From Pseudoalteromonas translucida KMM 520 (GTDB lineage: Bacteria; Pseudomonadota; Gammaproteobacteria; Enterobacterales; Alteromonadaceae): 32,000 nt of DNA. The stretch lies in assembly GCF_001465295.1 (NCBI RefSeq), contig NZ_CP011034.1, positions 2,790,001 to 2,822,000 on the forward strand. The letters run 5' to 3'. The notes beneath the pieces are model-generated. The model ran no database searches. It worked only from the letters and a program-made list of their open reading frames with translations, and was not told the DNA's origin. How positions within the stretch are numbered: the stretch's first letter is position 1; every line of letters begins with the position of its first letter. Positions 5,497-24,585 of this stretch are shown here, piece after piece. A program made the position numbers and the translations under genes.

Positions 5497-5554
5497 ATCA
5501 GGTTTATTACCGAGGATAAAAATAAAAAGTAGATTCGGGGATTAAATCCCCCGG

Positions 5555-6169
5555 CTATAAAGTATAAAGCCCACGGGTGTTTTTAGCGTTTTCAAGATTA
5601 AACTGATTTACATGCTCAATCAGCTCTGGAAAAAATGCTAAAAACACAGCATTTAATTCATCATAATGCTTTGCTATATCATCAACAGCGCCAGTAAAGG
5701 TGTTAGTAAAGCGAATGCGTTTGGCTATATTATCAAGTGCTAGGCCCACCCCATCAAGGGTTTCGTACTCTTTAAACCAATCGTTATCGGTCATGTGTTT
5801 TACAACATGCTGCATTCGCGGCGGCATTACAGGCATACGCTTATCTAAAAGCGCAAAGCTAGTTTGTTTAAAGTCGTTTAATGGCTGTAGATTATATTTT
5901 TGCCAATGCATAATTAAAAAGTGATCAAACACCACATCAATAGCCACCCCTGCAAAACGCCTACGCTTAGGTGAAAAATACTGTTTAGCCTCTTTAACTA
6001 TAGGGTGAGAGTCAGTAAATTTATCTACCAAATAGTGATTATCGAGCGCATTTTTTACCGTTATAGGTACCTGGTTTAAATGCCGCTGACCACCAAAGTC
6101 GCCCAGCAAATTACCAAAGTGCGAATCGGCCGTAGGCTGTGCTAAATAAAGATGAGCTAAATAATTCAA
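5555..6169 (-). CDS. acpH: Acyl carrier protein phosphodiesterase
   Basis: The N-terminus MNYLAHLYLA...GNLLGDF... and DVVFDHFL match the AcpH family signature (E. coli MNFLAHLHLA...GNLLADF...DVMWDHFL). Length of 204 aa fits. Confidence 0.85.
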   Translation of the reverse strand: MNYLAHLYLAQPTADSHFGNLLGDFGGQRHLNQVPITVKNALDNHYLVDKFTDSHPIVKEAKQYFSPKRRRFAGVAIDVVFDHFLIMHWQKYNLQPLNDFKQTSFALLDKRMPVMPPRMQHVVKHMTDNDWFKEYETLDGVGLALDNIAKRIRFTNTFTGAVDDIAKHYDELNAVFLAFFPELIEHVNQFNLENAKNTRGLYTL

Positions 6170-6695
6170 CGTGTTCTCAGATTTGGTTAATACCGTTTAG
6201 ATAATAACGCAGTTGTAGATGAAATTCATACAAAGGAAAAGTGAAAGGCTTTAAGCTTCAAGGAAGTAATATTTTAGTTCGTGATTTTTTCAGCAATAAA
6301 ACACAGGCTCCTGCGCTCCCCATAAAAAAGACAACTACAAACCTGCTCCCCCTATCCAATTACAATTGTGTTTGATTAATTCAGTAAAGAGTCAGCCTTA
6401 TTTTGCTATCAATGTTGCTGTATTTTTCGGTACTGCATGAGTCATAAAACGCCTTGCTTAACCTTAACTATTAAACCTGAACTCTGGTTAAGAGATTCAC
6501 TTACGTATTGAATCATATTTATATTTAATTTTATTTTCTCTAGCCAGAGGTTTTCAGTGAAAACAAGGCTAATTTACGCGTCAATAGCTGGCCTATTGCA
6601 AGAAAACTCAACGCAGTTAGCGCTGAAAATAGCTGCTTGAGATAAGTTTATTATCCGAAGCTCAGGTTATTAAGCTCACAGAGGCACAACACGTT

Positions 6696-7067
6696 ATGAC
6701 AACTACTTTTTTAAGCCAATTACAGCAAGTCGCACTGCAACAAGCCCTTATCAGCACCAAGCTTCTAAACAGTTATACATTAAAGAGTAATAACGCACCA
6801 TCGCCCAAGCAACAAGCCTATAGCTTAATTGCTGTCGCGCTATACCGCTTTAATCTACAAAAAATAAAATGGTCATCTTTTTTAAAAACAGCCATAAATA
6901 CAGCAAACAACACATGCCAATGGTTAGCCACCGAACTTGTAAGGTGCCAACAAGACTATAAAGCCCAATCTCATGACACTGTAATTAGCGAACAAAGTGC
7001 ATTCATTAATGGTATTTTTAGCGAAGAACTCGTTTATATTGATGGTTTACTGGGGGTTGAAGCGTAA
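6696..7067 (+). CDS. Hypothetical protein
   Basis: 123-aa ORF after a 526-bp intergenic region. No recognisable motif, so coding status is uncertain. Confidence 0.4.
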   Translation: MTTTFLSQLQQVALQQALISTKLLNSYTLKSNNAPSPKQQAYSLIAVALYRFNLQKIKWSSFLKTAINTANNTCQWLATELVRCQQDYKAQSHDTVISEQSAFINGIFSEELVYIDGLLGVEA

Positions 7068-7101
7068 GCTAACTTAAGCTTATTAAAGCAATTATGTGAA
7101 C

Positions 7102-7139
7102 TGTCGGATGGCGCGACTGCGCCGCTTATCCGACCTACG
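7102..7139 (-). repeat. REP-like palindromic element (GTAGGTCGG head)
   Basis: The minus strand reads cGTAGGTCGGATaagcGGCGCagtcGCGCCATCCGAca, a nested palindrome closely resembling enterobacterial REP units. Its GTAG contains the antitoxin stop codon (7135-7137). Confidence 0.55.
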
Positions 7140-7419
7140 CTATTTGCGTTGTAAGGCGAAAGTTAAGTGCTTTCATCACTTTAAAAATAGTTTCCCAACG
7201 TGGTTTGGTTTTACCATTAACTGCTTTATATAAGCTTTCACGGTTTAACCCTGTTGCTTTAGCAATATCACTCACGCCATGCTTTTTAACTAATAAGCCA
7301 AGTGCTTCAATAAAGGTATTTGGATCATCATCAGCTAAACACTCTTCTAAAAATGTATTAATTTCTTGCTGTGTTTCCATATAATCAAACGGATTAAAAT
7401 CTGATGTTTGTAGCGCCAT
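7135..7419 (-). CDS. Addiction-module antidote protein (HigA-like HTH antitoxin)
   Basis: 94 aa with ...DDDPNTFIEALGLLVKKHGVSDIAKATGLNRESLYKAVNGKTKPRWETIFKVMKALNFRL, typical of the TIGR02684-type antidote family. It lies 5 bp downstream of the toxin gene. Confidence 0.85.
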   Translation of the reverse strand: MALQTSDFNPFDYMETQQEINTFLEECLADDDPNTFIEALGLLVKKHGVSDIAKATGLNRESLYKAVNGKTKPRWETIFKVMKALNFRLTTQIA

Positions 7420-7424
7420 AATAA

Positions 7425-7721
7425 TTACTCCAATTCACTTAAAAGGGCTTTTGCTTTGGTAATGTCTTTGCCTTGTGTGCCTTTGTGTCCACCATTGAGT
7501 AGTAAAATAACTTCACCGCCTCTAATTATGTAATAAACACGATAGCCTTTCCCTACGAAAATTCGCATTTCAAATATGCCACCACCAACAGATTCACTAT
7601 CGCCAAAGTTACCATTTATAGCACGTGTAATACGTTTAGCTATTGCCATAAAAGCTTGACGATCTTTGAGCTTTTTAAGCCATTTATCGAACTCGTCGGT
7701 TTTCTTAATACGATATTTCAT
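7425..7721 (-). CDS. Addiction-module killer protein (RelE/ParE superfamily, HigB-like; toxin gene first)
   Basis: FDKWLKKLKD...ITRAINGNFGDSESVGGGIFEMRIFVGKGYRVYYIIRGGEVILLLNGGHKGTQGKDITKAKALL matches the TIGR02683-type killer family. The ATG at 7721 is preferred over the TTG at 7739. Confidence 0.85.
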   Translation of the reverse strand: MKYRIKKTDEFDKWLKKLKDRQAFMAIAKRITRAINGNFGDSESVGGGIFEMRIFVGKGYRVYYIIRGGEVILLLNGGHKGTQGKDITKAKALLSELE

Positions 7722-7870
7722 AAAACAATTGTAGCCCAAAGGCTACATGCGTGCAATTTTATTTAAGGGATACCGAATTTTGATTTAACAATCAACGCGG
7801 CAGCAAGCTAAACGCCTACAATAAATAATACATACTCTTGGCTTTTAAGCGAGTAAGTATATTTGGGATT

Positions 7871-7903
7871 TGTTGGGTTTCGTTTCACTCAACCCAACCT
7901 ACG
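7871..7903 (-). repeat. REP-like palindromic element (GTAGGTTGG head)
   Basis: The minus strand reads cGTAGGTTGGGTTgagtgaaacgAAACCCAAca, a 7-8 bp stem directly after a GTAGG head. Confidence 0.45.
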
Positions 7904-7934
7904 TAAGCATTAAAATTACGAAAAACATACACAC

Positions 7935-7967
7935 AAAAAAGCCGTTGCAGCAATGCAACGGCTTTTT
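7935..7967. terminator. Bidirectional rho-independent terminator; probably the native gcvP terminator displaced by the island
   Basis: aaaaaa-gccgttgca-gcaa-tgcaacggc-ttttt. With the island removed in silico it would lie about 70 nt downstream of the gcvP stop. Confidence 0.65.
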
Positions 7968-8033
7968 AAATTTTTATAAATTCCCAAACTATAACGGGAC
8001 TTACTTACCATCAAAGATTAAAAATTATTAATC

Positions 8034-8038
8034 TCTGC
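8034..8038. repeat. Target-site duplication, left copy (TCTGC)
   Basis: TCTGC lies immediately outside the TGTCA terminus at 8039. An identical pentamer lies immediately outside the other terminus (18261-18265). Confidence 0.75.
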
Positions 8039-8174
8039 TGTCATGCTCTAATTAAGTTTGTGAATCGGCCTTTAAAAACAAAGAGCTACAACAAAACAAT
8101 ATTTCAATTAAGTTTGTGACTAGAAAGTAAACTCCACTCAATTTGTTCTTCTTAATTTTAATTAAGTTTGTGAC
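8039..8174 (+). repeat. Tn7L-like end: terminal TGTCA plus three spaced putative transposase-binding repeats
   Basis: AATTAAGTTTGTGA occurs at 8050-8063, 8106-8119 and 8160-8173, with 56 and 54 bp spacing. This resembles the three dispersed TnsB sites of Tn7L. Confidence 0.7.
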
Positions 8175-8287
8175 TAATTCACCGTATTAAAATTCAAGTT
8201 ATATTTTCTAATTGCTTGAATGTTAGCCTAAATACTTTATGATTAAATTTCATACAAATGTATAAGCTCAATAAAAGGATTTAAGTA

Positions 8288-8650
8288 ATGATTTCATTTT
8301 TAAGTTTATTTTTAGGTTTTGCATTAATAGGTCTAGTTTGTACTTTGTTTGGTGTAATTTTAAGCCTATTTATGGGGTTACTTGGATTAACTACAAAAAA
8401 ACTGAGTTTTTCTGACTCAGTAGAAGCATCAATGAGTTCACTTCAACCCGCTTTTATAACCGCAGCAATTCTAGTTATTCCTAGTTGTTTAACACTACTT
8501 AGGCCAGCAAGCGACATACCCGATTTTCTGTACTACGAAGATAGATTTGGTAAGAATAATGACACTACCAGCGGATTTTTCTTATTTATGTACATCTTTT
8601 CCGCTGTATTTATCATTTTATATATTTCAAAAATAAAGAGTTATTTTTAA
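8288..8650 (+). CDS. Small membrane protein (about 3 predicted TM helices), unknown function
   Basis: 120 aa with an AAGGA Shine-Dalgarno about 9 nt upstream of the ATG. Hydrophobic stretches lie at about residues 1-34, 54-70 and 96-113. It is 87 bp upstream of, and co-oriented with, the CARF-nuclease gene. Confidence 0.55.
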   Translation: MISFLSLFLGFALIGLVCTLFGVILSLFMGLLGLTTKKLSFSDSVEASMSSLQPAFITAAILVIPSCLTLLRPASDIPDFLYYEDRFGKNNDTTSGFFLFMYIFSAVFIILYISKIKSYF

Positions 8651-8737
8651 ATGTTGAGTTATTATTGATTACCTCACCATATCTTAAAAATATCATATTA
8701 AAATTCATAGTAATAATTCAAAAATATAGCGAATAAA

Positions 8738-9892
8738 ATGAAAACTAATACAAAGCAAGTGACACACATTTGTTTAATTGGAGAAGATCCAACAGCTAAT
8801 CTCACGCCCATTATTGATAAAGATATCCCTAGTGATAGAGTCATCATTGCTCATGAGAAGCATCAACAAGAGCAAGTTGAACAACTTAAAAAAGTGATTC
8901 AAACCAGAGGTTATAAAGTTGATAAATGGTTATTACCAACAACATTTAATACTGAAGAAATTAAATTAAATTTCATGCAACTATTTGAACAAGAGAACAC
9001 TCACCCAAGTGATACTTGGCTAAATGCGAGCAATGGTTCTCGCTATCAAATACTGGCCGCATATGAGGTCGCAAGAGCGTATGATTCCAAAATTTATATT
9101 GTTGAACCAAAATACGATGCACTATGTTGGCTCTCACCTGAAAATAGAGAAATGACACCCGTTGCTGATAAAATTAAATTACATGAATTCCTTTCTGTTA
9201 ATGGCTTTACTTTAACATCACAACAAAATAAGAATGGAGTATCTCTCGACCTAAGAGCAATAGGCGAAAACTGGCTAAAGCAAGCAGATAAACTACAAAC
9301 AGGACTAGCTAAACTTAATTACCTTGCACAATTTACCCATGGCGATACTTTTATAGGCAAGGAGCAAGATATTGCAATGCTAAATGATGAATCATTACAG
9401 TGGTTACTTAATGATTTAGAAATTTTAGATCTAATTAAAGTTGATGGTAAATCTGTACACTTTCAAAATGAAAAAACGCGTTTTTTTGCTAACGGTGGTT
9501 GGCTTGAAGAAATCACATTTAGCTATATCCGTAGTTTAAGTAGTGAAATACCTGAGCTACAAGATAATGGCCATAGTGTTGAAATTGAACGTTCAATCAA
9601 TGGAAAAACAATTAAAAATGAATTAGATGTTGTTGCGCTAGTAAACAACAAGCTTCATGTTATTGAATGTAAAACTAAAAAATTTAAAAATGGAGAAGGC
9701 TCCAACATGCTATATAAAATAGACTCGCTAGCTGAACGTTTAGGGGGATTAAAATGCAAGGCAGCCCTTGTCACTTTTTTTCCATTAAACAAAAGTGAAC
9801 TAGCAAGGGCAAACGAGCTTAATATCGAAATTTTTGTCGGAACAAGCTTGAAGCTTTTAAAGAACAACATCAAAAACTGGCTACAAAAATAA
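8738..9892 (+). CDS. CARF-domain plus PD-(D/E)xK nuclease, Card1/Can2-like (DUF1887-type) putative cyclic-oligonucleotide-activated effector
   Basis: The N-terminal Rossmann-like region begins VTHICLIGEDP and carries the CARF signature (D/N)x(S/T)xxx(R/K) as N96-A-S-N-G-S-R102. The C-terminal region has GGWLEE (253-258) then ELD297...VIE310-C-K312, which is a PD-(D/E)xK motif. Confidence 0.65.
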   Translation: MKTNTKQVTHICLIGEDPTANLTPIIDKDIPSDRVIIAHEKHQQEQVEQLKKVIQTRGYKVDKWLLPTTFNTEEIKLNFMQLFEQENTHPSDTWLNASNGSRYQILAAYEVARAYDSKIYIVEPKYDALCWLSPENREMTPVADKIKLHEFLSVNGFTLTSQQNKNGVSLDLRAIGENWLKQADKLQTGLAKLNYLAQFTHGDTFIGKEQDIAMLNDESLQWLLNDLEILDLIKVDGKSVHFQNEKTRFFANGGWLEEITFSYIRSLSSEIPELQDNGHSVEIERSINGKTIKNELDVVALVNNKLHVIECKTKKFKNGEGSNMLYKIDSLAERLGGLKCKAALVTFFPLNKSELARANELNIEIFVGTSLKLLKNNIKNWLQK

Positions 9893-9944
9893 AGCTAGAT
9901 AGTCCCCCTAAAAATAGGTTTATTTATATAAGGACTGTAGTAAC

Positions 9945-12900
9945 TTAGACTTTTTCCTCAGTTCCATATATAGAGGCTGGTAAATCAAATATTTTATTAA
10001 ACATAGATAAAAATGTTCTATTTTTCCTTGGGTCACTATCAAATAATTTTGAATTACAAAAGATTACCTCATCATTCTCACCAAAAAATATATCTAAGTC
10101 TGAGTATGCATCGTTTGTAAATTGAATTATCTCTCGTTGTTCAAAATATCTAATATCTATATCTTCTACAATCTTTGACTTTTCAAATATTGTTATTCGT
10201 CTCAAGTAAACATTATTCTGCAATTCCTTAACTAATGTCCCATTATTTGATAATAATAAAGACTTATTTATTGCTGAAGAGCGCATCACGGCCCAACTAT
10301 TTGAAGCTCCTAACCATAAATCACCATCCCATTCAATCTTCTGGTCTTCATGCACAGTATCGATACGTGATGAGCGAGGATTGGTATCTTTCCAATTTTT
10401 AGACGTTGGAAAAAACAAATGCATACAGTCCCCAATATAATGTGCACCTCTAGCTGTAGCTTTTCTTATTTTTGGGGATTGATTGCGATCATATAAGATG
10501 CTGACTAATAAGAACCTACCTTTCCAGTAGTCTCTAAAATTAGGGCTGCCATCTTCAGAGGTAACTGCATTATACAATTGTATTGGTAACAAATTATTAG
10601 CAATTTTCACTTCTAAATTTGAATTTGGAATAAATAATTTCACACCTGAACTATCAACTTCAGTTACTTGAACTACAACAAAGTCTCCTGTAACGCATGA
10701 GCTATTATCTAAATTGAATAAAGATAGCACTTGCAGTATTTCTTGAAAAATTTCATCATCTCCTTCAAAAACATTAAGACTAAATTTCTCAACCGCGTTA
10801 CGGATTAAATCATTTTGAGAATCTAACACTTCCCTTTTATTTTGGTTTGATAATATTTTATTATTTAAGTTTTCAATTACTTCAAGAATATACTTTCTTT
10901 TAATTTTATTTGATATTTCGGTACAAAGGTGGGATTTAGGTACACTTTTACAAAATGCTAGACCACTAAACAGAACTCGAATTTTTCGATGGGATTTTAA
11001 TTTATCATTTATATTTTGAGTATCAATATATGAAATTATAGACAATAAGTAATTTGAAAATAGTAAGTAAACTTCATCACTAATGCTTGTATTAGCCAAC
11101 TCCTTAACATACTTAGCCATATTAGTAAGAGTTATGAGACAAGTTGGCCATTTAAGTTCAGCTAAAGGCATTTCTTTAATTATTATGACAATATTATTGA
11201 CCTCACTAGGGTCTATTTCTTGAATCACATCCAGTGTAGAAATCACTTTATTAAACTCTCCATCTCCAAGATAGTTTATGAATCTTCCTGTAAGTTTAAG
11301 AGAACTCCTCCACTCCTCAATTAAATTGCTATCACTTAAATTAAAGTGATTAGACCTTATATTTAAAATCCAATAGGTAAGAGTTCTTGCTTTATACCAA
11401 GCTATAACTCCATTAAATTCATTATCATCTGCTATATTTTTTTTTGACAATAAATCAAGGAAAGGCTGAAGAATCTCGCCCTCACACTTTTGAATGGTTA
11501 TTGTATTTGGCGCGACTTGAAAATTCTTGGACGCAAGTGAGCTAGATAGCTTTCTTAGCACCTTTGCAACTTGAATATACTCTTTAGTATCAGAGAATTG
11601 ATACGAATTGAGAGTTTGTAATAAACTGTGCCATTTAATGTTTAACTCTTCTAAATCAATAAGGTTCCTATTTGAATATAGTCTAGATAATTCATGAAAT
11701 ACGATGGAGTGTAGCTCTATTTTTTCATTTTTATCTATAGTGACAATACGATTAGATTGAGTATTGTCACTTATAACATTCCACTTTTGTAATCTATCGT
11801 TTAAAGAGGTAACACTATTAAAGACTTCAACTATTAGGCTTAAGTTTAAAGGCACATTTTTGTTATGCGGTATATCTGAAAACAGTCCTAATTCATCATT
11901 GTAAGAATATGCATATCGGTATTTATTTATTTCTGTCTTTAATCGTGAACGAATATCAGATAAAGCGGCTCTAACTTTTAAATCAATATACCTAATGTTA
12001 CCAAAAACAGAAAAGTATTCGACTATATTGGCAAGCCCACGTATCAATTCATTTAAATTATCAGCTCCAACCATATCTCTTATATAAGTAGGTTTCTCAT
12101 TTGTCTGCCTTATAAAAAACAGTAAAAAAATTTCAAAGGACTTCTTGTTAATACTATCGAATTCCAAGCATTCATTTTTATCTAAAAGCTTTGTTTTATT
12201 AATCCAATTTAATAATCCAGTAATTTCACTAACTGACCAATATCCAACATCAAATTCTCTAAGATAAGCTGCACTTTTAAAACAATCTAAAGCTAGTGAA
12301 ATATTTCTCATAAATAAATGACTATTGCTTTCATTATTCTCACATGTCGACAATATCGGTTTTACATGCCTATATATTACTTCTAGATCATTCCGTATAA
12401 TTTTGTATAAATCATCTGATTCAGATACTAAAGATTTAACATGATCTTTTAATACTAAATAACGCTCCTGGTGTTCATCTGTTATGACATAAAGCATCGT
12501 CCCTCGTTTCGCTAGTTTTTCAAAAGGCTCTACCCTCTCTTCATCAAGGTAATACCACTCAGATTCAGATATCTTATCAAAACAAGCTAATATATATATT
12601 GATTGTTTAACCTTCCGTTCATCCCCCATGCCTATAAATAATCGTTCACAGGCTCCATTGTATTTTTTTATTTTTTCTGTAACATATTTTTCTATCAGCT
12701 CTTTTTGATTACTTGCATTAGTGTTTATAACTTCAGGAATACTTAATAACTCTTCAAACGATCTATTCTTAAATAAATTTAAAAGAAACCAACATCTCTC
12801 TCTAGTAGAGTTTGGCAACCTCATTATTTTTCCATTTGGTCCGTTACATAAGAAACTGGCTATTTTCTTTATTTGGACCTGTTTAAATGAATCTCTATTA

Positions 12901-13087
12901 GTAATTTTAAAGTCTACAACTTTAGACTTCAGAAATTTTTTTATTTCTAATAATGCGCTATCTGAATTAAGTGAATTATTTTGTTCCCACTCATGAATTA
13001 CATTAGCCACAAACCCTATTGATTCTAACTCTTCCAAACTCCCTATTTCAAATGGTCGTTTCAAACCTGCGAGAATATATTCGGGTT
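9945..13087 (-). CDS. Large ORFan protein (over 1000 aa), 5' end abutting or disrupted by the IS; unknown function
   Basis: A 3.1-kb uninterrupted ORF in AT-rich DNA, which is unlikely by chance. The first 8 codons of the tracked ORF (GTG at 13112, MAKITVPL) are encoded by the IS left inverted repeat, so the native start is unknown. No Walker A, DDE or other motif was seen by eye. Confidence 0.6.
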
Positions 13088-13163
13088 GTAGTGGTACAGT
13101 GATTTTGGCCACCCATTAAGAAAGAAATGTTATGCTAATAAGCATACAAATTTGGGTGAAAAA

Positions 13164-14344
<1,181 letters not shown>

Positions 14345-14347
14345 CCA

Positions 14348-15154
14348 CTACAAAAGGAATAGTTTTTGAGACAAATCGAGTTTTAATATGCGGTGTAAAG
14401 CAACATGCTTGAATATGGTTTGACTACGTTTAAAGTCTAATGACATTACTTTGCCAGTATTTAAGATGTGCTTTTTCAATGATGCGAAAGGATTTCCTAC
14501 CCAGAAATCTTCAAATATTTCAACAAACTCAAGTTTTTCACTATCTGAAACAATGGCAGTAGCCTCAGTAGTAAACCAATCTATATTCCAAGCAAGTTCT
14601 TTGGTGGCATCTTGCTCAGTAATTACAGAATAATCGCCAACATGCTCTTCACTGTAAACTTGTTCTATATGAAATTTTTGCCAAACTCGATAGTGTTTTT
14701 CCTGTTGGCTGCCATCTTCATCGACTACCCATATTTGATCCGAATACTTAAATGAATAAGTTGATTTCGTAACTTCTCCAGTACTAAAATCAACTGTATG
14801 AGCAACCAAGTCGCTCGACATAACATGAGCAGTATTAGTCTCCCAATTTCGAGGGTGGATGTAGCCAAGCTCTTCCGCTATTGCTAGATTTTCGTTAAGG
14901 TCTAATGGTACTTGCTCATCAATTTGAATAGTTTCAGGACGCCACATCAATATTTTATACGCTCGCCTTTCACCATCACTGAGCAAATGAACTTTTCGTT
15001 TTTGTTTAGGACATTTATGTAAGTGACGTCTACCTACCTTGTTAACCTGTTTAACAGTGACCCAAGGAATATGAATATCCTCGCTAGCAGCAAGTGCTTC
15101 GTTCCACTTTTCAATTTTTGCTATAACTTCTTCGGTAATTACTGGCTGTTTCAT
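14348..15154 (-). CDS. tnsA: Tn7-type transposition protein TnsA (endonuclease); the 3' end runs into the IS
   Basis: Collinear with Tn7 TnsA as I remember it: IHIPWVTVKQV..GRRH......KVHLLSDGERRAY...IDEQVPL...IAEELGYIHP...VMSSDLV...YSFKYS, versus DYIPWLTVQEV..GRSH...RVHHLLSDLELAVF..IREQFPL..IAIDSGIKHP..VMSTDFLV..IQVKP. The catalytic E/D/K equivalents are present (E66, D119, K140 in ORF-track numbering). The final Leu codon and the TAG stop are supplied by the IS right end. Confidence 0.8.
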   Translation of the reverse strand: MKQPVITEEVIAKIEKWNEALAASEDIHIPWVTVKQVNKVGRRHLHKCPKQKRKVHLLSDGERRAYKILMWRPETIQIDEQVPLDLNENLAIAEELGYIHPRNWETNTAHVMSSDLVAHTVDFSTGEVTKSTYSFKYSDQIWVVDEDGSQQEKHYRVWQKFHIEQVYSEEHVGDYSVITEQDATKELAWNIDWFTTEATAIVSDSEKLEFVEIFEDFWVGNPFASLKKHILNTGKVMSLDFKRSQTIFKHVALHRILKLDLSQKLFLL

Positions 15155-15155
15155 C

Positions 15156-15515
15156 TTAATCACCAATGATTGAGCGTAATAAAGTGAGTGGAAGTCGGGA
15201 AGCTTGTTTCGGTGTGAGTTTAGGATCGAAACGAGCTTGTATAGATAAATGGTGCAACAATGATAGGATTTTTATTAGTGCGGGATACTTTGTAGCGCTT
15301 GCTGGGATGACTATATACCCCACATTGTTGATGTGAACTAATGTCTCAAGCTTATTAGCTAATACTGATATTCCCCCTCTGCTAGCCAATTTCGGTATTG
15401 ATATGTACTTTACAACTAAGCAGTGAGAGTTTAATGCGTCAATGCAAAACCCTTTGATGGTTGAAAACGACTCAGCTTTCAGTTTTAAATTTATCTTACG
15501 TTGATTTGATTTCAT
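15156..15515 (-). CDS. Hypothetical 119-aa protein, translationally coupled to tnsA
   Basis: Its TAA stop (15156-15158) is separated by 1 nt from the tnsA ATG (15152-15154). No recognisable motif. Confidence 0.5.
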   Translation of the reverse strand: MKSNQRKINLKLKAESFSTIKGFCIDALNSHCLVVKYISIPKLASRGGISVLANKLETLVHINNVGYIVIPASATKYPALIKILSLLHHLSIQARFDPKLTPKQASRLPLTLLRSIIGD

Positions 15516-15914
15516 TTTAACCTAGCTAATTTAGAGTTCATTAAAAAATTATTAGCTATAAAAATTAAAAAATCAAGAACGCTCTAGAGGCAAACCACTG
15601 ATTTAAAAGGAATTAATGCACATTAAAATATATAGATATTATAATATTTATTAATTTTTAGAATTGGAACTCATTGATATTTAGGGCAGTTTTATTCAAA
15701 TATTTTTGGAGATATTTTAAGGTAAATTATTGTTACTATGCTGGAGTGGTCTTTTTGAGCTTTGAAAATAAATTTAATTATTTTTGTTTTTTAGGAAGAA
15801 AACATAAGAAACGGCTAAATTCTCCTATTTTCGTGATGATAAATCTGATTTTTAGAGTTAGTTCGTAGTTGAGTACTTTTCTACCATTAAGTACGAACTA
15901 CTATACAATCTGAT

Positions 15915-16838
15915 TTATTTCCTTTTACTTAGATAGTTAGATAAATCAAACTTCTTTCTAGGGTCAATAGTATATATGTTGGTATCTGGCCAAAGTTCTT
16001 TTGCTGCATTTATATTGGGAAAGGGATCAATTAAAAAAATACGAGTTATGTTCTTACCTTTTATTTTTAAGAATTCAAGCAAGGCTTTATCATATTGATT
16101 AAAAGCAAACCCAAATAAAATTAAACTTTTGCTATCTAACAGTATTTCCCCACCAAGAGACCAGACGTCTTCAAGTTCAGTTGGTGGTGTTTTTTCTGGA
16201 ACTGGTGGAATAATTAAAGATTTACCAGCTCGACCAGGCTTTCCGCTTGTATATTTAATGTCTCTTTCCCAAGAAAGAGACCCGTGCAATTTAGCTAATG
16301 GAATTTTACCTGTTACGTGAACATGTGCGTTTTGCCATGGAAATTGGGGGTTTAACCCTCTTCCATACAGTTGCTCGCCAACGACCCCATAATTAAAGCC
16401 TGAAGTACCTAAAGCACACTCCACTAATGTATCGTAATTACAAGTAATAATCCCTTTTAAGCCGTATTGGTTTAATGACAATAAAAACTGATTTAGTTTA
16501 ATTATTTTATCGTTTTCTCTTACCGCTCTCTCATCAAACATAGCGGAAGTATATGAGCCACTAATTCTTGTCATGAATGGCTCTGTAAGCCTTCTATTAA
16601 CATACCAAATAACTCTGCTTCGCCTATGGGAAGATTTATTCATACACCAATAAATAAAACGTTCAGGGGAGTTGTCTAAGTTATCTTTTAGCCAATTAAC
16701 CCAATCAGACTTCAGTAGCTCTAGCTTCCTTTGCTCAGAGTTATTTATAGTGTTGATATTAAAATCGAAAAGCTGATTTACCAATGGTAGTTCAAATGCC
16801 CATTTAGAAAATCCAGCTCCTAGAAATAAAGCTGTCAT
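15915..16838 (-). CDS. SIR2-like (SIR2_2-type) predicted NAD+-binding or NAD+-hydrolysing protein
   Basis: The N-terminal LFLGAGFS glycine motif, IITCN134YDTLVE and LAKLH185GSLSW match the defence-type SIR2 signature (Asn/His catalytic pair as in ThsA/DSR). 307 aa, with no fused sensor domain. Confidence 0.7.
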   Translation of the reverse strand: MTALFLGAGFSKWAFELPLVNQLFDFNINTINNSEQRKLELLKSDWVNWLKDNLDNSPERFIYWCMNKSSHRRSRVIWYVNRRLTEPFMTRISGSYTSAMFDERAVRENDKIIKLNQFLLSLNQYGLKGIITCNYDTLVECALGTSGFNYGVVGEQLYGRGLNPQFPWQNAHVHVTGKIPLAKLHGSLSWERDIKYTSGKPGRAGKSLIIPPVPEKTPPTELEDVWSLGGEILLDSKSLILFGFAFNQYDKALLEFLKIKGKNITRIFLIDPFPNINAAKELWPDTNIYTIDPRKKFDLSNYLSKRK

Positions 16839-18031
16839 TTATTTTTCTTCATGTTATTAGGTAACGCTTTTTGTAACCAATTTGGCTGCTTTAACCTTTC
16901 AATAAACCATTCAATGAAAGCAACTGAATATCTTGGTCTATCAGTTAAATCAAAATATTCTGCTTTATTCTTTATTTTGTGTTTTTTAACAACAGCTCTA
17001 AAAGAATAATTATTAATAATGCAGTCTGCTTGTCTCTCGTTGATTTCTTTTATTGCAGTAGTTTCATAAAAAGGATGCGTAATCTTTAAGTTCTTCGGAC
17101 GATCAACAAAAACAGTATGTTTACCATCAGGACCAGTGCCAAAAGTCAAATCTTCAGATCCTGGTTTTTTAGTAAGTGCCAACTTATACTCAATATGAAT
17201 AGCAAAACGATTAGAGTTATGTTTTTGTTCAAGTTTTTTGAATTTTTTTAAAAATTCATTTACTTGGCTGGCTGTTTTCTTTCCGTACTCTTCTTTAACC
17301 AATGCAATGTCTGGTTCTGGGCCATCAATAACCAAACTCAACATCCCTACGTTTTGATCTGCCAATGGAGCATAACCTTCTTGATGAGCAAACTCTTCTT
17401 GATAAAGCAAAACAGTGGTTTGAAATAGCCTAGATAACTGGGGCTGAATCTCAGGTAATAGAAGATGAATAGCATCATTTCTTAAAGATATTAGCTGATT
17501 TAAATTATCTTTATCTGCACTATCATTTGGATATTTAAAATTAACAGCTTCGCTTAAAGGTATGCTTTTGCCATCTTGGTCTATTAATGAGTCAAACCCC
17601 TTAGCTTTCAAAATTTGTGATTTTAATAAAAGCTCCCAAGCATTAGTCATCATAATGGCGAATGCTTCGACCCTATTTTCCAAACTTGGTCTGTTGTATA
17701 CCTCTAAAGCAACAGTAAATGCATTCAAACTTCTCTTGATAAGTTTGTAATACAGTTTTTCGTCATCTGTTAATATTTTAGCTTGTGTACTTTGCGAGGT
17801 AATCCTAATAAAATCATTATCACTAATAGCCAATAGACCTTTGCAATACCAATTTGGTCTTTTGTCTTGAAAAATATATTTACCTTTTAAGCTCTCACTT
17901 ACCAATTTTTGAATGTAATTGACTTTATTGCCAGTTGCTAGCGCTGCTTCAGCATATGTAAAAGAAAGTTTTTTTCTTTCTTTATCCCGAAAGAAGCTTA
18001 AAACTATAATTCGCTTATCTTGCTTTACCAT
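16835..18031 (-). CDS. DUF3644-like protein (N-terminal helical domain) with an uncharacterised C-terminal half
   Basis: The motif FTVALEVYNRPSLENRVEAFAIMMTNAWELLLKS is what I associate with DUF3644 (from memory). AAGGA Shine-Dalgarno about 9 nt upstream. The stop overlaps the SIR2 start (ATGA at 16835-16838). Confidence 0.6.
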   Translation of the reverse strand: MVKQDKRIIVLSFFRDKERKKLSFTYAEAALATGNKVNYIQKLVSESLKGKYIFQDKRPNWYCKGLLAISDNDFIRITSQSTQAKILTDDEKLYYKLIKRSLNAFTVALEVYNRPSLENRVEAFAIMMTNAWELLLKSQILKAKGFDSLIDQDGKSIPLSEAVNFKYPNDSADKDNLNQLISLRNDAIHLLLPEIQPQLSRLFQTTVLLYQEEFAHQEGYAPLADQNVGMLSLVIDGPEPDIALVKEEYGKKTASQVNEFLKKFKKLEQKHNSNRFAIHIEYKLALTKKPGSEDLTFGTGPDGKHTVFVDRPKNLKITHPFYETTAIKEINERQADCIINNYSFRAVVKKHKIKNKAEYFDLTDRPRYSVAFIEWFIERLKQPNWLQKALPNNMKKNK

Positions 18032-18095
18032 GAGTCTCTATCCTTGAGCATAAATGCTGGTATATGAGGAACTTCAAATTTGAGTAATACTTAAG

Positions 18096-18125
18096 ATTAT
18101 AAAGTTAAAACAATCTTACAAACAA
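18096..18125 (-). promoter_or_regulatory. Candidate sigma70 promoter for the DUF3644-SIR2 operon
   Basis: On the minus strand: TTGTTT (18125-18120), an 18-nt spacer, then a perfect TATAAT (18101-18096), about 65 nt upstream of the ATG at 18031. Confidence 0.3.
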
Positions 18126-18153
18126 CGTTAAAGAAAAAACTTTATATCAGATA

Positions 18154-18184
18154 CAAAAAAGGTGAGCATTTAGCTCACCTTTTA
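18154..18184 (-). terminator. Rho-independent terminator just inside the Tn7R-like end
   Basis: The minus strand reads aaaaggtgagc-taaat-gctcacctttt followed by tttg. It is placed to stop read-through from gcvP into the element. Confidence 0.55.
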
Positions 18185-18195
18185 GTCAATTCTGA

Positions 18196-18260
18196 GTCAC
18201 AAACTTAATTCAATTCACAAGCTCTATTGCAAGAGTCACAAACTTAATTGAAAGTTGACA
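18196..18260 (-). repeat. Tn7R-like end: terminal TGTCA plus three closely packed putative transposase-binding repeats
   Basis: gTCACAAACTTAATT occurs at 18196-18210 and 18235-18249. A degenerate copy, tTCACAAGCTCTATT, lies at 18214-18228. All are inverted relative to the left-end repeats, and the terminus ...GTTGACA ends at 18260. Confidence 0.7.
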
Positions 18261-18265
18261 TCTGC
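18261..18265. repeat. Target-site duplication, right copy (TCTGC)
   Basis: It directly abuts the element terminus. The gcvP stop codon (18268-18270) is 2 bp further on. Confidence 0.75.
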
Positions 18266-18267
18266 TC

Positions 18268-21159
18268 TTAATCGCGGTATGTCTCAACCGGTGGGCAAGC
18301 ACACACTAAGTTGCGGTCGCCGTATACGTCGTCAATACGTGTTACGGTTGGCCAAAACTTGTTTTTAGCCACTGCAGGCACTGGGAATGCAGCGTAAAAA
18401 CGGTCGTATGCACGATCCCATTCGTTACCTAACACGTCGCCTTGGGTGTGCGGTGCAAACACTAACGGGTTGTTTTCGATTGACCATTCGCCAGAGATTA
18501 CTTTGTCGATTTCGCTCTTAATTGACACCATTGCTTCAATGAAGCGGTCGATCTCAACCTTAGACTCAGACTCGGTAGGCTCTATCATTAACGTGCCCGC
18601 TACTGGGAACGACATAGTAGGTGAATGGAAGCCGTAGTCTTGTAGGCGTTTAGCTACGTCCATTTCAGTAATGCCCGACAACTCTTTAAGCGGACGCAAG
18701 TCAACAATACATTCGTGCGCAACGCGGTTGTTACGGCCACGGTATAAAATTGGGAAGTGCTTGCTTAGCTCATGCGTTAAGTAGTTAGCATTTACAATTG
18801 CCATTTCAGTGGCTTGTTTTAAGCCCTCTGAGCCCATCATGGTAATGTAAGCCCACGAAATAGGTAAAATAGACGCTGAACCATATGGCGCTGCCGATAC
18901 CGCTCCGTTACCTTCGTTAGTACCTGGTACGTTAATAATGCTGTGGTTAGGCATAAATGGCGCAAGGTGCGATTTAACACCAATTGGGCCAACACCTGGG
19001 CCACCGCCACCGTGTGGAATACAAAAGGTTTTATGCAAGTTTAAGTGCGATACGTCTGAGCCAATAAAGCCTGGGCTAGTTACGCCAACTTGCGCGTTCA
19101 TGTTTGCGCCGTCCATGTAAACTTGGCCGCCGTGCTGATGAATAATGTCGCAAATTTCACGAATTGTTTCTTCGTATACGCCGTGTGTAGATGGGTAAGT
19201 GATCATAATACACGATAAGTTTTCGGCTACTGCTTCTGCTTTCGCTTTAAGATCGGCCATGTCTACGTTACCGTTTTTATCACAATCAACAACCACAATT
19301 TTCATGCTGGCCATTTGTGCCGACGCTGGGTTAGTACCATGCGCTGAACTTGGAATTAAACATACGTTACGGTGTGCATCCCCGCGTGACTCGTGGTATT
19401 TACGAATGGCGATTAAGCCTGCGTATTCACCTTGAGCACCTGAGTTAGGTTGCAATGAAACCGCATCGTAACCGGTAATATTTACCAACCAATCATGCAG
19501 TTCGCCCATCATAATTTGATAGCCCTGTGCTTGATCTAGCGGACAAAATGGGTGCAAGTTTGAAAATTCAGGCCAAGTAATTGGGATCATCTCAGCGGTC
19601 GCGTTTAGTTTCATGGTACATGAACCTAACGAGATCATTGAGTGGTTAAGCGCTAAATCTTTGTTTTCTAGGCGCTTAATATAACGCAGCATTTCAGTTT
19701 CGCTGTGGTACGAATTAAAGTTAGGGTGCGTTAATACTTCATCATCACGCTCTAAGCTTGCTGGAATTGACGTGCTGCCATTGTTTTCAATATCGGCTGC
19801 AATTGCATCAACACTTAGGCCATGGCCTTCGCCTAATACAATATCAAATAACTGCGCTACGTCTGCACGTGTGGTGGTTTCTGATACGGCAATTGAGTAT
19901 TCGCCATCGCGGTTAGTGGCAAAGTTAACACCGCTTGCCAGTGCACGCGCAATAACGTCGGCTTTGCTATCGCTTACTACCGTTAGGGTATCAAACCAAG
20001 TGTTGTGTTTAAGGCTCACGCCTTTAGCTTGTAAGCCTGCTGCTAAAATATCGGCAAAGCGATGAATGCGCTGAGCAATGGTTTTTAAGCCTTGTGGGCC
20101 ATGGTACACAGCGTAAAACGCTGCCATGTTGGCCAGTAATACTTGCGCGGTACAAATGTTTGAGTTGGCTTTGTCGCGGCGAATGTGTTGCTCACGCGTT
20201 TGCATTGCCATACGCAGTGCGTCGTTACCTAAACGGTCTTTAGATACACCAATAATACGACCTGGTAATGAACGTTTGTACGCGTCACGTGTTGCAAAAA
20301 ATGCAGCATGTGGGCCACCGTAACCCATAGGTACACCAAAACGCTGCGCCGAACCTAATACTACGTCTGCGCCTAATTTACCCGGTGCTTTTAATAGTAA
20401 TAAACTCATAATGTCGGCAGCAACACAAGCAATTGCCTTTTTGCTTTGTACGCCAGCAATTAGGTCGGTAATGTCTACCACTTCACCAGTTGTTGATGGG
20501 TATTGAAATAACGCGCCAAAAATCTCATGGTTAACAGCGTCGGCAGCTTTGCCTACAATTATTTCAAAACCAAACTGCTCGGCGCGAGTGCTTACTACGT
20601 CAATTGTTTGTGTGTGTACGTCGTCGGCAATAAAAAATGCATTGGCTTTTTTCGCTTTAGACACACGCTTTGCAAGACCCATAGCCTCTGCAGCAGCGGT
20701 TGATTCGTCAAGTAACGATGCACTTGCTAAATCTAGGCCGGTTAAATCTAGGGTCATAGTTTGAAAGTTAAGTAACGACTCTAAACGCCCTTGCGCTATC
20801 TCTGGCTGATATGGAGTGTACGCAGTATACCAACCTGGGTTTTCTAGTACATTACGTAAAATTACGTGCGGTACATGTGTTGGGTGGTAGCCTTGGCCAA
20901 TATACGATTTGAAAACTTTATTTTTGCTTGCTACTGATTTTAAGTAGCTTAGTGTTTCAACTTCGGTGCGGCTTTCGCCCACGGTTAAAGGCTGCTCAAG
21001 GCGAATACCTGCAGGTACAGTTTGACCGATCAGCTCTTCAACACTCGATACTTCAAGCGCGCTAAGCATATCGCTTACTTGCGCTGGGCTTGGCCCAATA
21101 TGGCGGCGAATAAAATCTTGCGTTTGCTCTAACTGCTCAAGAGATTTGGCGTTTGACAT
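18268..21159 (-). CDS. gcvP: Glycine dehydrogenase (decarboxylating), glycine cleavage system P protein
   Basis: 963 aa, the single-chain P-protein length. Hallmark segments include [19 protein letters not shown], and the PLP-lysine context [18 protein letters not shown]. Confidence 0.95.
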
Positions 21160-23012: not shown

Positions 23013-23612
23013 TTACGCTGCGGCGCCTTGAATAAGGGCAAAGCCTTGGGCTTGCATATACTCTTGCCACTTTTGCAGCTCAGGGGTTTTAGCCACCAGC
23101 ACAAATTGTTGCTGGTCGTTTTTATTTATGGCTGTGATAAATACGTCACCGCTTTGCGTACCGTAACATAATTGCGCATCTGAAAGACGTAAACCCGGCG
23201 TTAATTTAAAGGCTTCTACAATTGAGTCAAAGGCATTACTGCCGCTTAAAATAAAGCTTGCTAGGTCGGTACGCATAACATAATCAATGTCATAACGCAG
23301 TTGTTGCTCGTTTATAAGTGCTTGTAATTGCTGGCTGGCGCAGTGCGGTAATATAAATCTAAAGGCGGTTTCGCTAAAGCAGTAAACGGCATAACTATAA
23401 TCAGAGTTAAAGTCGCCATCAAGGGTGCCAATTAAGCCCAAGCCACTGGCCGTTAATTTAGTTAAATCGTGGCCTAGTATATTACTTAAAAATACCGATG
23501 CTTCGGTGCCGCTAAAGTCTATTACAACGTGGTTGTTGCTGGCCTGCAAAGAATTAATAACCGCGCTGTTAGCTTTGCTATGGCGGGCAAACATAATGGG
23601 GCTAAAAGTCAT
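23013..23612 (-). CDS. Hypothetical protein
   Basis: About 200-aa ORF upstream of gcvT and divergent from a LysR gene. The ATG at 23612 is preferred over the GTG at 23621. I cannot assign a family. Confidence 0.5.
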   Translation of the reverse strand: MTFSPIMFARHSKANSAVINSLQASNNHVVIDFSGTEASVFLSNILGHDLTKLTASGLGLIGTLDGDFNSDYSYAVYCFSETAFRFILPHCASQQLQALINEQQLRYDIDYVMRTDLASFILSGSNAFDSIVEAFKLTPGLRLSDAQLCYGTQSGDVFITAINKNDQQQFVLVAKTPELQKWQEYMQAQGFALIQGAAA

Positions 23613-23739
23613 AACAAACACCTATCAAACTTATAATATCAAAAGTATATTGCTCCCGCTGTACAACAACAAATTGTAATTATTAATCAATTGATAAATA
23701 ATGCTTATATATATGGCGATATTAATTGTGATTTTAAAT

Positions 23740-24585
23740 ATGAAAAACATTTCAACAGATAGTTTACGCACTTTTGTAATGGTAGTAGAGGCCAGCGGTT
23801 TTGCTAAAGCCGGCGATTTACTTGGCTTATCGCAACCTGCGGTTAGCCTTCAAATAAAGCGCTTAGAAGATTTGCTTGGTTATAAATTATTTAAAAAACA
23901 AGGCCAACGCCAAGTGCTTAATCAATATGGCGAACTATTATTGCCAATGGCTAAACAAATGATGCAACACAACGATGCCATTTTGCAGCTATTTACCTCA
24001 GAAAGTATTACCGGCCGAGTTCGTTTGGGTATTCCAAGCGAATTTGCAGCGCGTATTCTGCCCTCTATTATTGGCGACTTTGTAGCTTTATATCCTGAGG
24101 TATCGCTGGAAGTTAAATCGCGTTTAAGTAAGCATTTATTATCGCAAGAACGCCAAGATCAGTTTGATTTAGTACTGGCACTCAACGAGCAGCTCGACTC
24201 GGAGCAATTTCCTATTTTTAAGCAAGATCAGCTGGTATGGGTGGGCGACTTGTCGCTAGCACAAAACGACACTGTTACTTTGGTCACCGCTCCCGAGGGG
24301 TGTATTTACAGACGCCGAGCTATTGAGGCGCTAGAAAGGTCGGGAATAAAGTATCGTATTGTGTATAGCAACGCCGATTTAACCGGGCTTATTGCTGCGC
24401 TAAAAGAAGGCTTAGGCATTACAGTGCTAGCTAAAAGCACTGTACCTAACGAGCTAAATTATCAACTTAAAACCAAATTTTTACCATCCTTGGGTGATAT
24501 TGGCATTAGCTTAGTAAAAACGGCCAGTGAGCCAGAAAACGCCGTTTTTAAATTGGCCGAATTTATTAAGCTTCGCTTAGGCTAA
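23740..24585 (+). CDS. LysR-family transcriptional regulator
   Basis: LRTFVMVVEASGFAKAGDLLGLSQPAVSLQIKRLEDLLGYKLF is a wHTH. The ATG at 23740 is preferred over the tracked 23701 start, which would add a hydrophobic leader. Confidence 0.85.
   Translation: MKNISTDSLRTFVMVVEASGFAKAGDLLGLSQPAVSLQIKRLEDLLGYKLFKKQGQRQVLNQYGELLLPMAKQMMQHNDAILQLFTSESITGRVRLGIPSEFAARILPSIIGDFVALYPEVSLEVKSRLSKHLLSQERQDQFDLVLALNEQLDSEQFPIFKQDQLVWVGDLSLAQNDTVTLVTAPEGCIYRRRAIEALERSGIKYRIVYSNADLTGLIAALKEGLGITVLAKSTVPNELNYQLKTKFLPSLGDIGISLVKTASEPENAVFKLAEFIKLRLG

Follow-up and report, generated by a model that had tools for sequence, protein, structure and literature searches.

The 32,000-nucleotide stretch of the Pseudoalteromonas translucida KMM 520 genome analyzed here (contig NZ_CP011034.1, positions 2,790,001 to 2,822,000; hereafter the window, whose own coordinates are used throughout) contains an island of 10,222 bp, at 8039-18260, that lies just 3' of gcvP. 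This island is very probably the remnant of a Tn7-family cut-and-paste transposon, a member of a clade that homes to the 3' end of gcvP, and was later cut down by a deletion associated with an insertion sequence (IS). Judged by its sequence, it is a deletion derivative of an element of ~16.6 kb. An earlier note, made from the letters of the window alone, had read the region as a Tn7-like island; its account of the origin stands, but it overlooked that the island is not intact, an IS3-family element having replaced ~7.6 kb of core and cargo.

The termini of the island have the form that the earlier note described. The pentamer TCTGC stands directly outside both of them, and both begin TGTCA, their first 28 nucleotides (nt) forming imperfect inverted repeats identical at 22 of 28 positions (left terminus, TGTCATGCTCTAATTAAGTTTGTGAATC; right terminus, in reverse complement, TGTCAACTTTCAATTAAGTTTGTGACTC). 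The 14-mer AATTAAGTTTGTGA occurs in five exact copies in the window, every one of them within the two ends, where the number expected by chance is 0 (0 of 100 dinucleotide shuffles gave any match). The note had counted this motif three times in each end. That count is exact for the left (L) end, where sites at 8050-8063, 8106-8119 and 8160-8173 lie +11, +67 and +121 from the terminus (spacing 56 and 54 nt). The right (R) end holds two exact inverted copies (18236-18249 and 18197-18210) and, between them, a degenerate site at 18215-18228 (AATAGAGCTTGTGA, 11/14 match), with spacings of 21 and 18 nt. The window element is thereby seen to possess a Tn7-type end layout, with TGT...ACA termini and multiple TnsB-type sites that are spaced in L and packed in R, and it is the packed R end that faces gcvP. 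The L end shares 71% identity with that of a relative (contig L004, 12840-13473). The non-IS interior has a GC content of 0.29-0.35, as against 0.43-0.46 for gcvP, in agreement with an AT-richness that had previously been judged by eye.

Uninterrupted versions of the insertion site were found in related genomes. Exact-sequence look-ups of the window gcvP, of the island's DUF3644 protein and of P0001 (a database protein identical to one island product, considered below) returned no record, and the relatives were instead reached through the 94-amino-acid (aa) antitoxin adjoining the L end (7135-7419), which led to six related contigs. Five of the six carry the same toxin-antitoxin pair ~290 bp past gcvP and are free of the island; the remaining one is L009, where a group II intron occupies the position. 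The flanks of the empty-site relatives are 87-94% identical in nucleotide sequence to the window, which therefore places them in congeneric genomes. Aligned with the joined flanks of the window, the empty site of three contigs (L010, L012 and L013) reads ...CGCGA(T/C)TAA-GA-GCAGA-GAC-TAATTTTT, with GCAGA (TCTGC on the opposite strand) present once. On L010 and L012, the two window flanks overlap by 6 nt, at 9384-9389 (blastn). Because these relatives carry a single GCAGA, the 5-bp duplication and the precise insertion are established. The joined-flank check proposed in the earlier note thus gave the uninterrupted site that it anticipated, and the asymmetric ends and 5-bp duplication that it took for marks of Tn7-type transposition are borne out by the site layout and the empty site.

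We find that the island also retains a gene of the Tn7 core. Its 272-aa product has 40 homologues of 270-295 aa, nearly all with a Tn7_TnsA-like_N domain, and a profile built from 22 of the TnsA homologues matches the sequence of the Tn7 TnsA crystal structure (1F1Z/1T0F) across both domains (E 6e-25). Residues E66, D119 and K140 are invariant in the family, are kept in the window protein and fall opposite the LLSDxE and xTDF blocks of Tn7 TnsA, a restriction-enzyme-like endonuclease with catalytic E, D and K. Furthermore, the window protein shares 93% identity with the TnsA encoded by an intact relative (L003; 275 aa, residues 1-268 aligned). On the strength of these alignments we regard the 272-aa product as a genuine TnsA. 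Its gene is co-oriented with gcvP, a point on which the earlier note was correct.

A 119-aa open reading frame (ORF) precedes tnsA in the window and in its closest relatives. Identity to its counterparts is 98% for L003 and L007 and drops to 29-37% for L001, L016 and L017, these more distant homologues sitting in elements of Thalassotalea, Alteromonas oceani and P. xiamenensis; the wider family lacks it. The product has no match in Pfam, NCBIfam, PHROGs or PADLOC and may be a clade-specific accessory or regulatory part of the tns operon.

Four contigs (L003-L006) encode P0002, a 1,382-aa cargo protein, and show what an intact element looks like. The order in L003/L004 is p119 (the 119-aa ORF), tnsA (275 aa), tnsB (745 aa), tnsC (494 aa), tniQ (321 aa), tnsD (481 aa), p64 (a 64-codon ORF) and p1382, followed on the opposite strand by a Card1-type nuclease gene, then a membrane protein gene and the L end. 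The 745-aa protein of the L003 type has a match to Tn7 TnsB (7PIK; residues 271-708, E 6.5e-34), others to TnsB from several CRISPR-associated transposons, and none to the Pfam rve model. The relatives' tnsC product matches AAA_22 (1.8e-13), their 321-aa protein matches TniQ, and their 481-aa TnsD matches TniQ and TnsD (2e-24). In L001 (Thalassotalea) and L002, gcvT-gcvH-gcvP is followed by cargo and then by tnsA-tnsB-tnsC-tniQ-tnsD.

A scan with the TnsA alignment, limited to one genome per species, returned 28 loci, of which 26 are in marine Gammaproteobacteria (Pseudoalteromonas, Alteromonas, Colwellia, Shewanella, Aliagarivorans, Litorilituus, Brumicola, Vibrio, Photobacterium and others); the other two, one in Sphingomicrobium and one in Burkholderia, match weakly. 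Across the clade, 0.7 to 8 kb separate gcvP from tnsA, so a variable cargo slot lies between the R end and tnsA. Different hosts fill this slot with different defence-type genes: it holds an OLD-type ATPase and a UvrD helicase in L001 and a metallo-beta-lactamase-fold protein in L007. Compared with L003, the window is a mosaic: the tnsA/p119 module is 92.6% identical at the nucleotide level and the Card1-type protein 89% identical at the amino acid level, and the giant cargo protein is only 56% identical, being either fast-evolving or swapped by recombination.

One of these relatives, the metagenomic contig L004, shows a further arrangement. At 13474-13545, its L end (...TGACA) gives way to CTGGT, directly after which comes the apparent R end of a different Tn7-like element, consisting of TGATCACAAC and three packed ACTTA(G/A)AGTTGGAAAC repeats. 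The arrangement suggests that two Tn7-like elements accumulated in tandem at a single site.

Comparison with L003 locates the deletion in the window copy exactly. The IS within the island resembles the IS3 family in its length of 1,266 bp, inside a family range of about 1.2-1.5 kb, its imperfect TG...CA inverted repeats (TGTAGTGG...CCACTACA) and its possession of orfA (HTH_Tnp_1) and orfB (rve) in different frames; full-length copies, 91% identical and annotated as IS3 family transposase, are present in Pseudoalteromonas replicons of 0.8-0.9 Mb. Window positions 15901-14353 correspond to L003 1859-3407 at 92.6% nucleotide identity, and the match ends there, 26 nt short of the end of tnsA (blastn). 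Cargo homology picks up again at window position 13085, at the IS boundary. Both IS junctions coincide with the loss of homology to L003, relative to which 7,625 bp are missing: the last eight codons of tnsA, the whole of tnsB, tnsC, tniQ, tnsD and p64, and codons 1-344 of the 1,382-aa cargo gene. No match to tnsB, tnsC, tniQ, tnsD or p64 was found anywhere in the window with tblastn, and the only rve-domain protein in the island is the IS orfB product.

The IS has no target-site duplication (its flanks are GGT and AAA), which is expected if the IS caused or mediated an adjacent deletion. As in other IS-associated deletions, the absent duplication and the loss of neighboring DNA fit either adjacent deletion or recombination between IS copies. 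The absence of TnsB from the window is explained by this deletion. Since three features of the Tn7 family – the TnsB DDE transposase, the TnsC AAA+ regulator and the TniQ/TnsD selector – are missing from the window copy, we describe it as a defective derivative rather than a transposon. The element is presumably no longer mobile on its own and fixed at gcvP.

Insertion of the clade is site- and orientation-specific beside a conserved gene. A co-oriented gcvP lies within 10 kb upstream of tnsA at 12 of the 28 loci, and those 12 span at least nine genera. Among 12 sequences compared (the window and 11 relatives), 11 have the R terminus 61-66 nt from the first base of the gcvP codons for GDRNL; L032 was scored at 85 nt by a scan that missed its first site. 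The distance from the gcvP stop codon to the R terminus is 4-13 nt in the 11 sequences and is more variable than the GDRNL distance. The relatives' packed R-end sites are of an AATxAAGTTTGTGA type. Seven of the 11 relatives (L001, L002, L020, L023, L025, L027 and L036) showed the complete set of three at +11, +32 and +50, and in the other four (L016, L017, L024 and L032) the scan picked up part of the set. In Tn7, which inserts at glmS, a TnsD-type selector reads conserved coding sequence and the element is placed at a fixed offset from it. By analogy, the fixed GDRNL offset would be the signature of a TnsD-type selector that reads the conserved end of gcvP.

Insertion at this position has a consequence for gcvP itself. 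The native gcvP terminator (7936-7967) now lies 10 kb from the gene, and because of this displacement the hairpin that the element carries just inside its R end would terminate gcvP transcription. Comparable hairpins follow the R-end sites in most relatives.

The clade as a whole resembles Tn7 at attTn7 (glmS), where TnsABC+D act, in many respects: a 5-bp duplication, TGT termini, three spaced L sites and three packed R sites; an R end and a tnsA that lie on the side of a conserved housekeeping gene and share its orientation; insertion shortly after the stop codon, at a constant offset from conserved codons; and, in the relatives, TnsA with the invariant E, D and K, TnsB, an AAA+ TnsC and a TnsD-type selector. 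It differs from Tn7 in its target gene, in carrying a small TniQ in addition to TnsD, in the variable slot between the R end and tnsA and, in the closest subclade, in the extra 119-aa ORF. The window copy differs further in having lost tnsB, tnsC, tniQ and tnsD. No TnsE was seen in the relatives by Pfam, although no search aimed at TnsE was made.

Existing catalogues already list Tn7-like elements by the thousand, with a diversity of selectors and defence cargo (PMC8649781). Elements with dual TniQ-TnsD selectors, one of more than 400 aa plus a smaller TniQ, have been described (Faure et al., 2023; PMC10293859), and the 481-aa selector of the relatives, with its TniQ, TnsD and helix-turn-helix domains, together with the 321-aa TniQ conforms to that pattern. 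Tn7 surveys name glmS, yifB/comM, IMPDH, yciA, SRP-RNA and tRNA sites. Attachment to gcvP is not mentioned in PMC10293859 or in the other Tn7 surveys examined, and literature searches returned no paper linking Tn7-like elements to gcvP or glycine dehydrogenase. Because no paper or survey naming the gcvP site was found, the gcvP-homing clade appears to be undescribed.

Several observations count against the interpretation of the island as an IS-deleted member of a gcvP-homing Tn7-like clade. When searched as a single sequence, the window TnsA scored below the Pfam cut-off for Tn7_TnsA-like_N (E 8.6e-4; 20.2 bits against 26.5), so that the domain check suggested by the earlier note gave a weak hit in this form, and it was the family profile that matched Tn7 TnsA. 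About nine of the loci with several kilobases of upstream flank show no gcvP within reach, and some members of the wider family may insert elsewhere or have longer cargo on the R side. The closest intact relative, L003, was recovered without its R end and R flank, so its own insertion site is not visible. The binding of TnsD to gcvP, the biochemical roles of the proteins and any defence activity are inferred. Insertion presumably preceded deletion, though the two could have come in either order, and a helper element may exist elsewhere in the genome, the search having covered 32 kb. None of the outcomes that the earlier note listed as fatal to its reading (no relative with contiguous flanks, a motif unrelated to element ends, no TnsA match) was found.

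In one alternative, the island arrived at gcvP as an already deleted, non-autonomous mini-element, mobilized in trans by TnsABC+D from an intact relative present in its host cell, and is perhaps still mobilizable because both ends are intact. Such a history would suit the retention of all sites in both ends and the perfect duplication. It would also suit the lack of further decay in tnsA and p119, which are 93-98% identical to their counterparts in intact relatives; this similarity marks the deletion as recent and fits either order relative to insertion. We nevertheless consider this alternative unlikely. The window contains no helper genes, gcvP, the sole site seen for the clade, is already occupied, and natural mobilization in trans of Tn7-like derivatives is undocumented in the material examined; it is simplest to suppose that the element inserted by means of its own genes and was damaged by the IS afterwards.

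Very improbable, in our assessment, is a second alternative, in which the island is still autonomous, its transposase being an unrecognizable protein such as the 1,055-aa product in partnership with TnsA, and the IS an irrelevant passenger. The ORF for that product lies downstream of tnsA on the same strand and has no family assignment, which would leave room for such a role. However, its start codon falls within the IS, the product corresponds to the C-terminal three-quarters of the 1,382-aa protein, the intact relative encodes that protein after tnsD and separately from a genuine TnsB, and a homologue of 29% identity occurs on its own next to an integrase fragment, without tns genes. We accordingly rejected the 1,055-aa product as a novel transposase and regard it as a truncated cargo protein. 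A last alternative, that the island is unrelated to Tn7 and is either an integrase- or phage-type island or a region bracketed by chance by a genome-wide motif, draws on the sub-threshold Pfam score and nothing else, and we dismiss it, since the window has no integrase or tRNA, the five exact 14-mers are confined to the two ends, and a similar end architecture stands beside gcvP in 11 other genomes with a full tnsABC-tniQ-tnsD set.

The IS-deleted Tn7-like interpretation suggests the following history, in which the steps of insertion draw on analogy with Tn7. In the intact form, TnsB would have bound the three sites in each end, and TnsA together with TnsB would have excised the element. A TniQ protein of the TnsD type would have bound the conserved last codons of gcvP and, through the TnsC ATPase, directed insertion just past the gcvP stop codon, with the packed R end toward gcvP and a 5-bp duplication as the product. 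The element would have brought its own terminator to a position behind gcvP. An IS3-family element removed ~7.6 kb, through adjacent deletion or recombination between two IS copies. The loss after insertion would have left a defence-type island with a Card1-type CARF operon, a SIR2 and DUF3644 pair and one dead cargo gene.

Table 1. Features of the gcvP-associated island in the window, with coordinates and strand.
Feature	Position	Strand	Remarks
Left copy of target duplication, TCTGC	8034-8038	.	Pentamer single at the relatives' uninterrupted site
L end	8039-8173	+	TGTCA terminus; three spaced TnsB-type AATTAAGTTTGTGA sites
120-aa predicted membrane protein	8288-8650	+	First gene of Card1 operon; 76% identical to 121-aa product at same position in L004
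Card1/Can2-type CARF and PD-(D/E)xK nuclease	8738-9892	+	Pfam Card1_endonuc, 1e-34
5'-truncated giant cargo gene	9945-13086	-	Residues 345-1382 of 1,382-aa family
IS3-family IS, 1,266 bp	13087-14352	+	orfA 13152-13475; orfB 13514-14344
tnsA without last 8 codons	14353-15154	-	ORF continues into IS, stop at 14348
119-aa ORF	15156-15515	-	Stop overlaps tnsA start codon; conserved in closest subclade
Non-coding conserved leader of core module	15516-15901	-	Homology to L003 and L007 begins at 15901
SIR2-like protein	15915-16838	-	Pfam SIR2_2, 2.7e-7 (above cut-off); PADLOC SIR2 models, best 8e-9
DUF3644 protein, PADLOC candidate defence gene PDC-S19	16835-18031	-	Pfam DUF3644, 5.8e-36; PDC-S19, 6.9e-60
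Terminator, hairpin and T-run just inside R end	18157-18183	-	In gcvP orientation
R end	18197-18260	-	TGTCA terminus; three packed sites at +11, +32 and +50
Right copy of target duplication, TCTGC	18261-18265	.	Pentamer single at the relatives' uninterrupted site
Attachment region, gcvP 3' end with conserved GDRNLxCxCP codons	18266-18330	-	Putative TnsD-binding site; gcvP gene 18268-21159

The earlier note had suspected defence cargo within the island, and genes of this type are indeed present (Table 1). The CARF nuclease has the N-terminal CARF and C-terminal PD-(D/E)xK nuclease domains of a Card1-type protein. It matches PADLOC CARF4--CARF_PDDEXK (7e-112) and, over the whole protein, VC1899 of Vibrio cholerae (1XMX, 5e-69) and Can2 (7BDV, 1e-32), and it retains the D...ExK motif (ELDVVAL...VIECKTK). 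Card1 and Can2 are ancillary effectors of type III CRISPR systems, in which the activating signal is cyclic oligoadenylate produced by Cas10. The window nuclease differs from them in its setting, with no cas10 or CRISPR array in the window, no cas gene among the window ORFs examined and a small membrane protein gene preceding it; the relatives' elements likewise lack CRISPR. The 120-aa membrane protein has no match in Pfam, NCBIfam, PHROGs or PADLOC. In L004, a 507-aa VirD4/TraG-like coupling-protein ATPase (11259-12782; T4SS-DNA_transf, 1.6e-55) is encoded between the membrane protein and the Card1-type nuclease, where the window has 88 bp (8650-8738). It is unusual for a CARF nuclease and a VirD4-like ATPase to be associated.

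The giant cargo gene belongs to a small family. The ORF listed at 9945-13112 (1,055 aa) proved to be 5'-truncated, a point missed in the earlier note, its apparent GTG start at 13112 lying inside the IS. Two relatives were found in a word-indexed protein collection: P0001, which is 100% identical and annotated as Pseudoalteromonas translucida, and P0002 (1,382 aa, 56% identity). Residue 10 of the window ORF (window position 13085) is the first to align with P0002, at P0002 residue 345. The family has 34 representative homologues among 1.84 billion proteins, and the 1,055-aa product has no match in Pfam, NCBIfam, PHROGs or PADLOC. The region lost from the window, P0002 residues 1-344, contains a Walker A motif (GGVGGSGKS, ~47-55), two long hydrophobic segments (~165-215) and an hhhhD-type motif (FVFVFDID, ~282-289). 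This N-terminus has no Pfam match and may resemble KAP-family P-loop NTPases, which have membrane helices within the NTPase domain. We also considered and rejected the idea that the 272-aa and 1,055-aa ORFs are one gene split by the IS: P0002 has no TnsA similarity, and its extra N-terminus is the P-loop region.

Structure prediction with AlphaFold gave a mean predicted local distance difference test (pLDDT) value of 38, too low for use, for the 1,055-aa fragment with a two-sequence alignment. The C-terminal ~175 aa of the giant protein were modelled with confidence from a 24-sequence alignment (pLDDT 86). A Foldseek comparison of the C-terminal domain model with the PDB gave weak matches only, to eS7 and NusA-KH (best TM 0.44-0.50). 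The giant gene is probably independent of Card1 because its homologue of 29% identity occurs on its own next to an integrase fragment. It is possible, though we put this forward tentatively and would sooner expect otherwise, that the left-arm cargo represents undescribed defence biology of the clade, combining the rare ~1,400-aa family with a CRISPR-independent operon of membrane protein, sometimes VirD4-like ATPase, and Card1-type nuclease. If so, this Card1 operon would need a source of cyclic nucleotide signal other than Cas10, and in the window it alone could still act, the giant gene being dead there.

The remaining cargo fills the slot between the R end and tnsA. The DUF3644 gene overlaps the start of the SIR2-like gene by 4 nt, and a literature search for DUF3644 together with SIR2 returned nothing relevant.

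The surroundings of the island are also of note. On the L side, a RelE/ParE-type toxin-antitoxin pair (7135-7739) lies near the L end, and the region past it (5500-7130 in the window, 10300-14000 in L008-L013) differs in every relative. Defence-type genes occur in this variable region, with GmrSD_N and an AAA_15 ATPase in L010 and L012 and PGAP1-like/CTD8 with AAA_23 in L013; it looks like a second variable hotspot beside the attachment site. L009 carries no Tn7-like element and instead has a group II intron, with an RVT_1 and GIIM reverse transcriptase, just past the gcvP terminator (7334-9392). The gcvP-downstream region is one that draws several kinds of mobile DNA. On the other side, upstream of gcvT, L008-L013 carry a divergent gene for a LysR-type regulator, and the window ORF at 23701-24585 occupies the corresponding position. 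No Rfam family, the glycine riboswitch included, was found anywhere in the window, its part upstream of gcvT-gcvH-gcvP (23013-24585) among the regions covered, and a tRNA scan of the window was empty.

These findings do not overturn the current understanding of Tn7-like elements. They would provide, through an intact relative (L003, L001, L016 or L017), a TnsD with a DNA target that is new, well defined and suited to site-specific integration tools. In the window copy, the fixation of a mobile defence island in the chromosome can be followed at the level of single bases, one IS event having taken the transposition machinery and spared the ends and most of the cargo. More broadly, gcvP joins the housekeeping genes that serve as safe-harbour attachment sites of Tn7-like elements and is used by a whole clade in marine Gammaproteobacteria.

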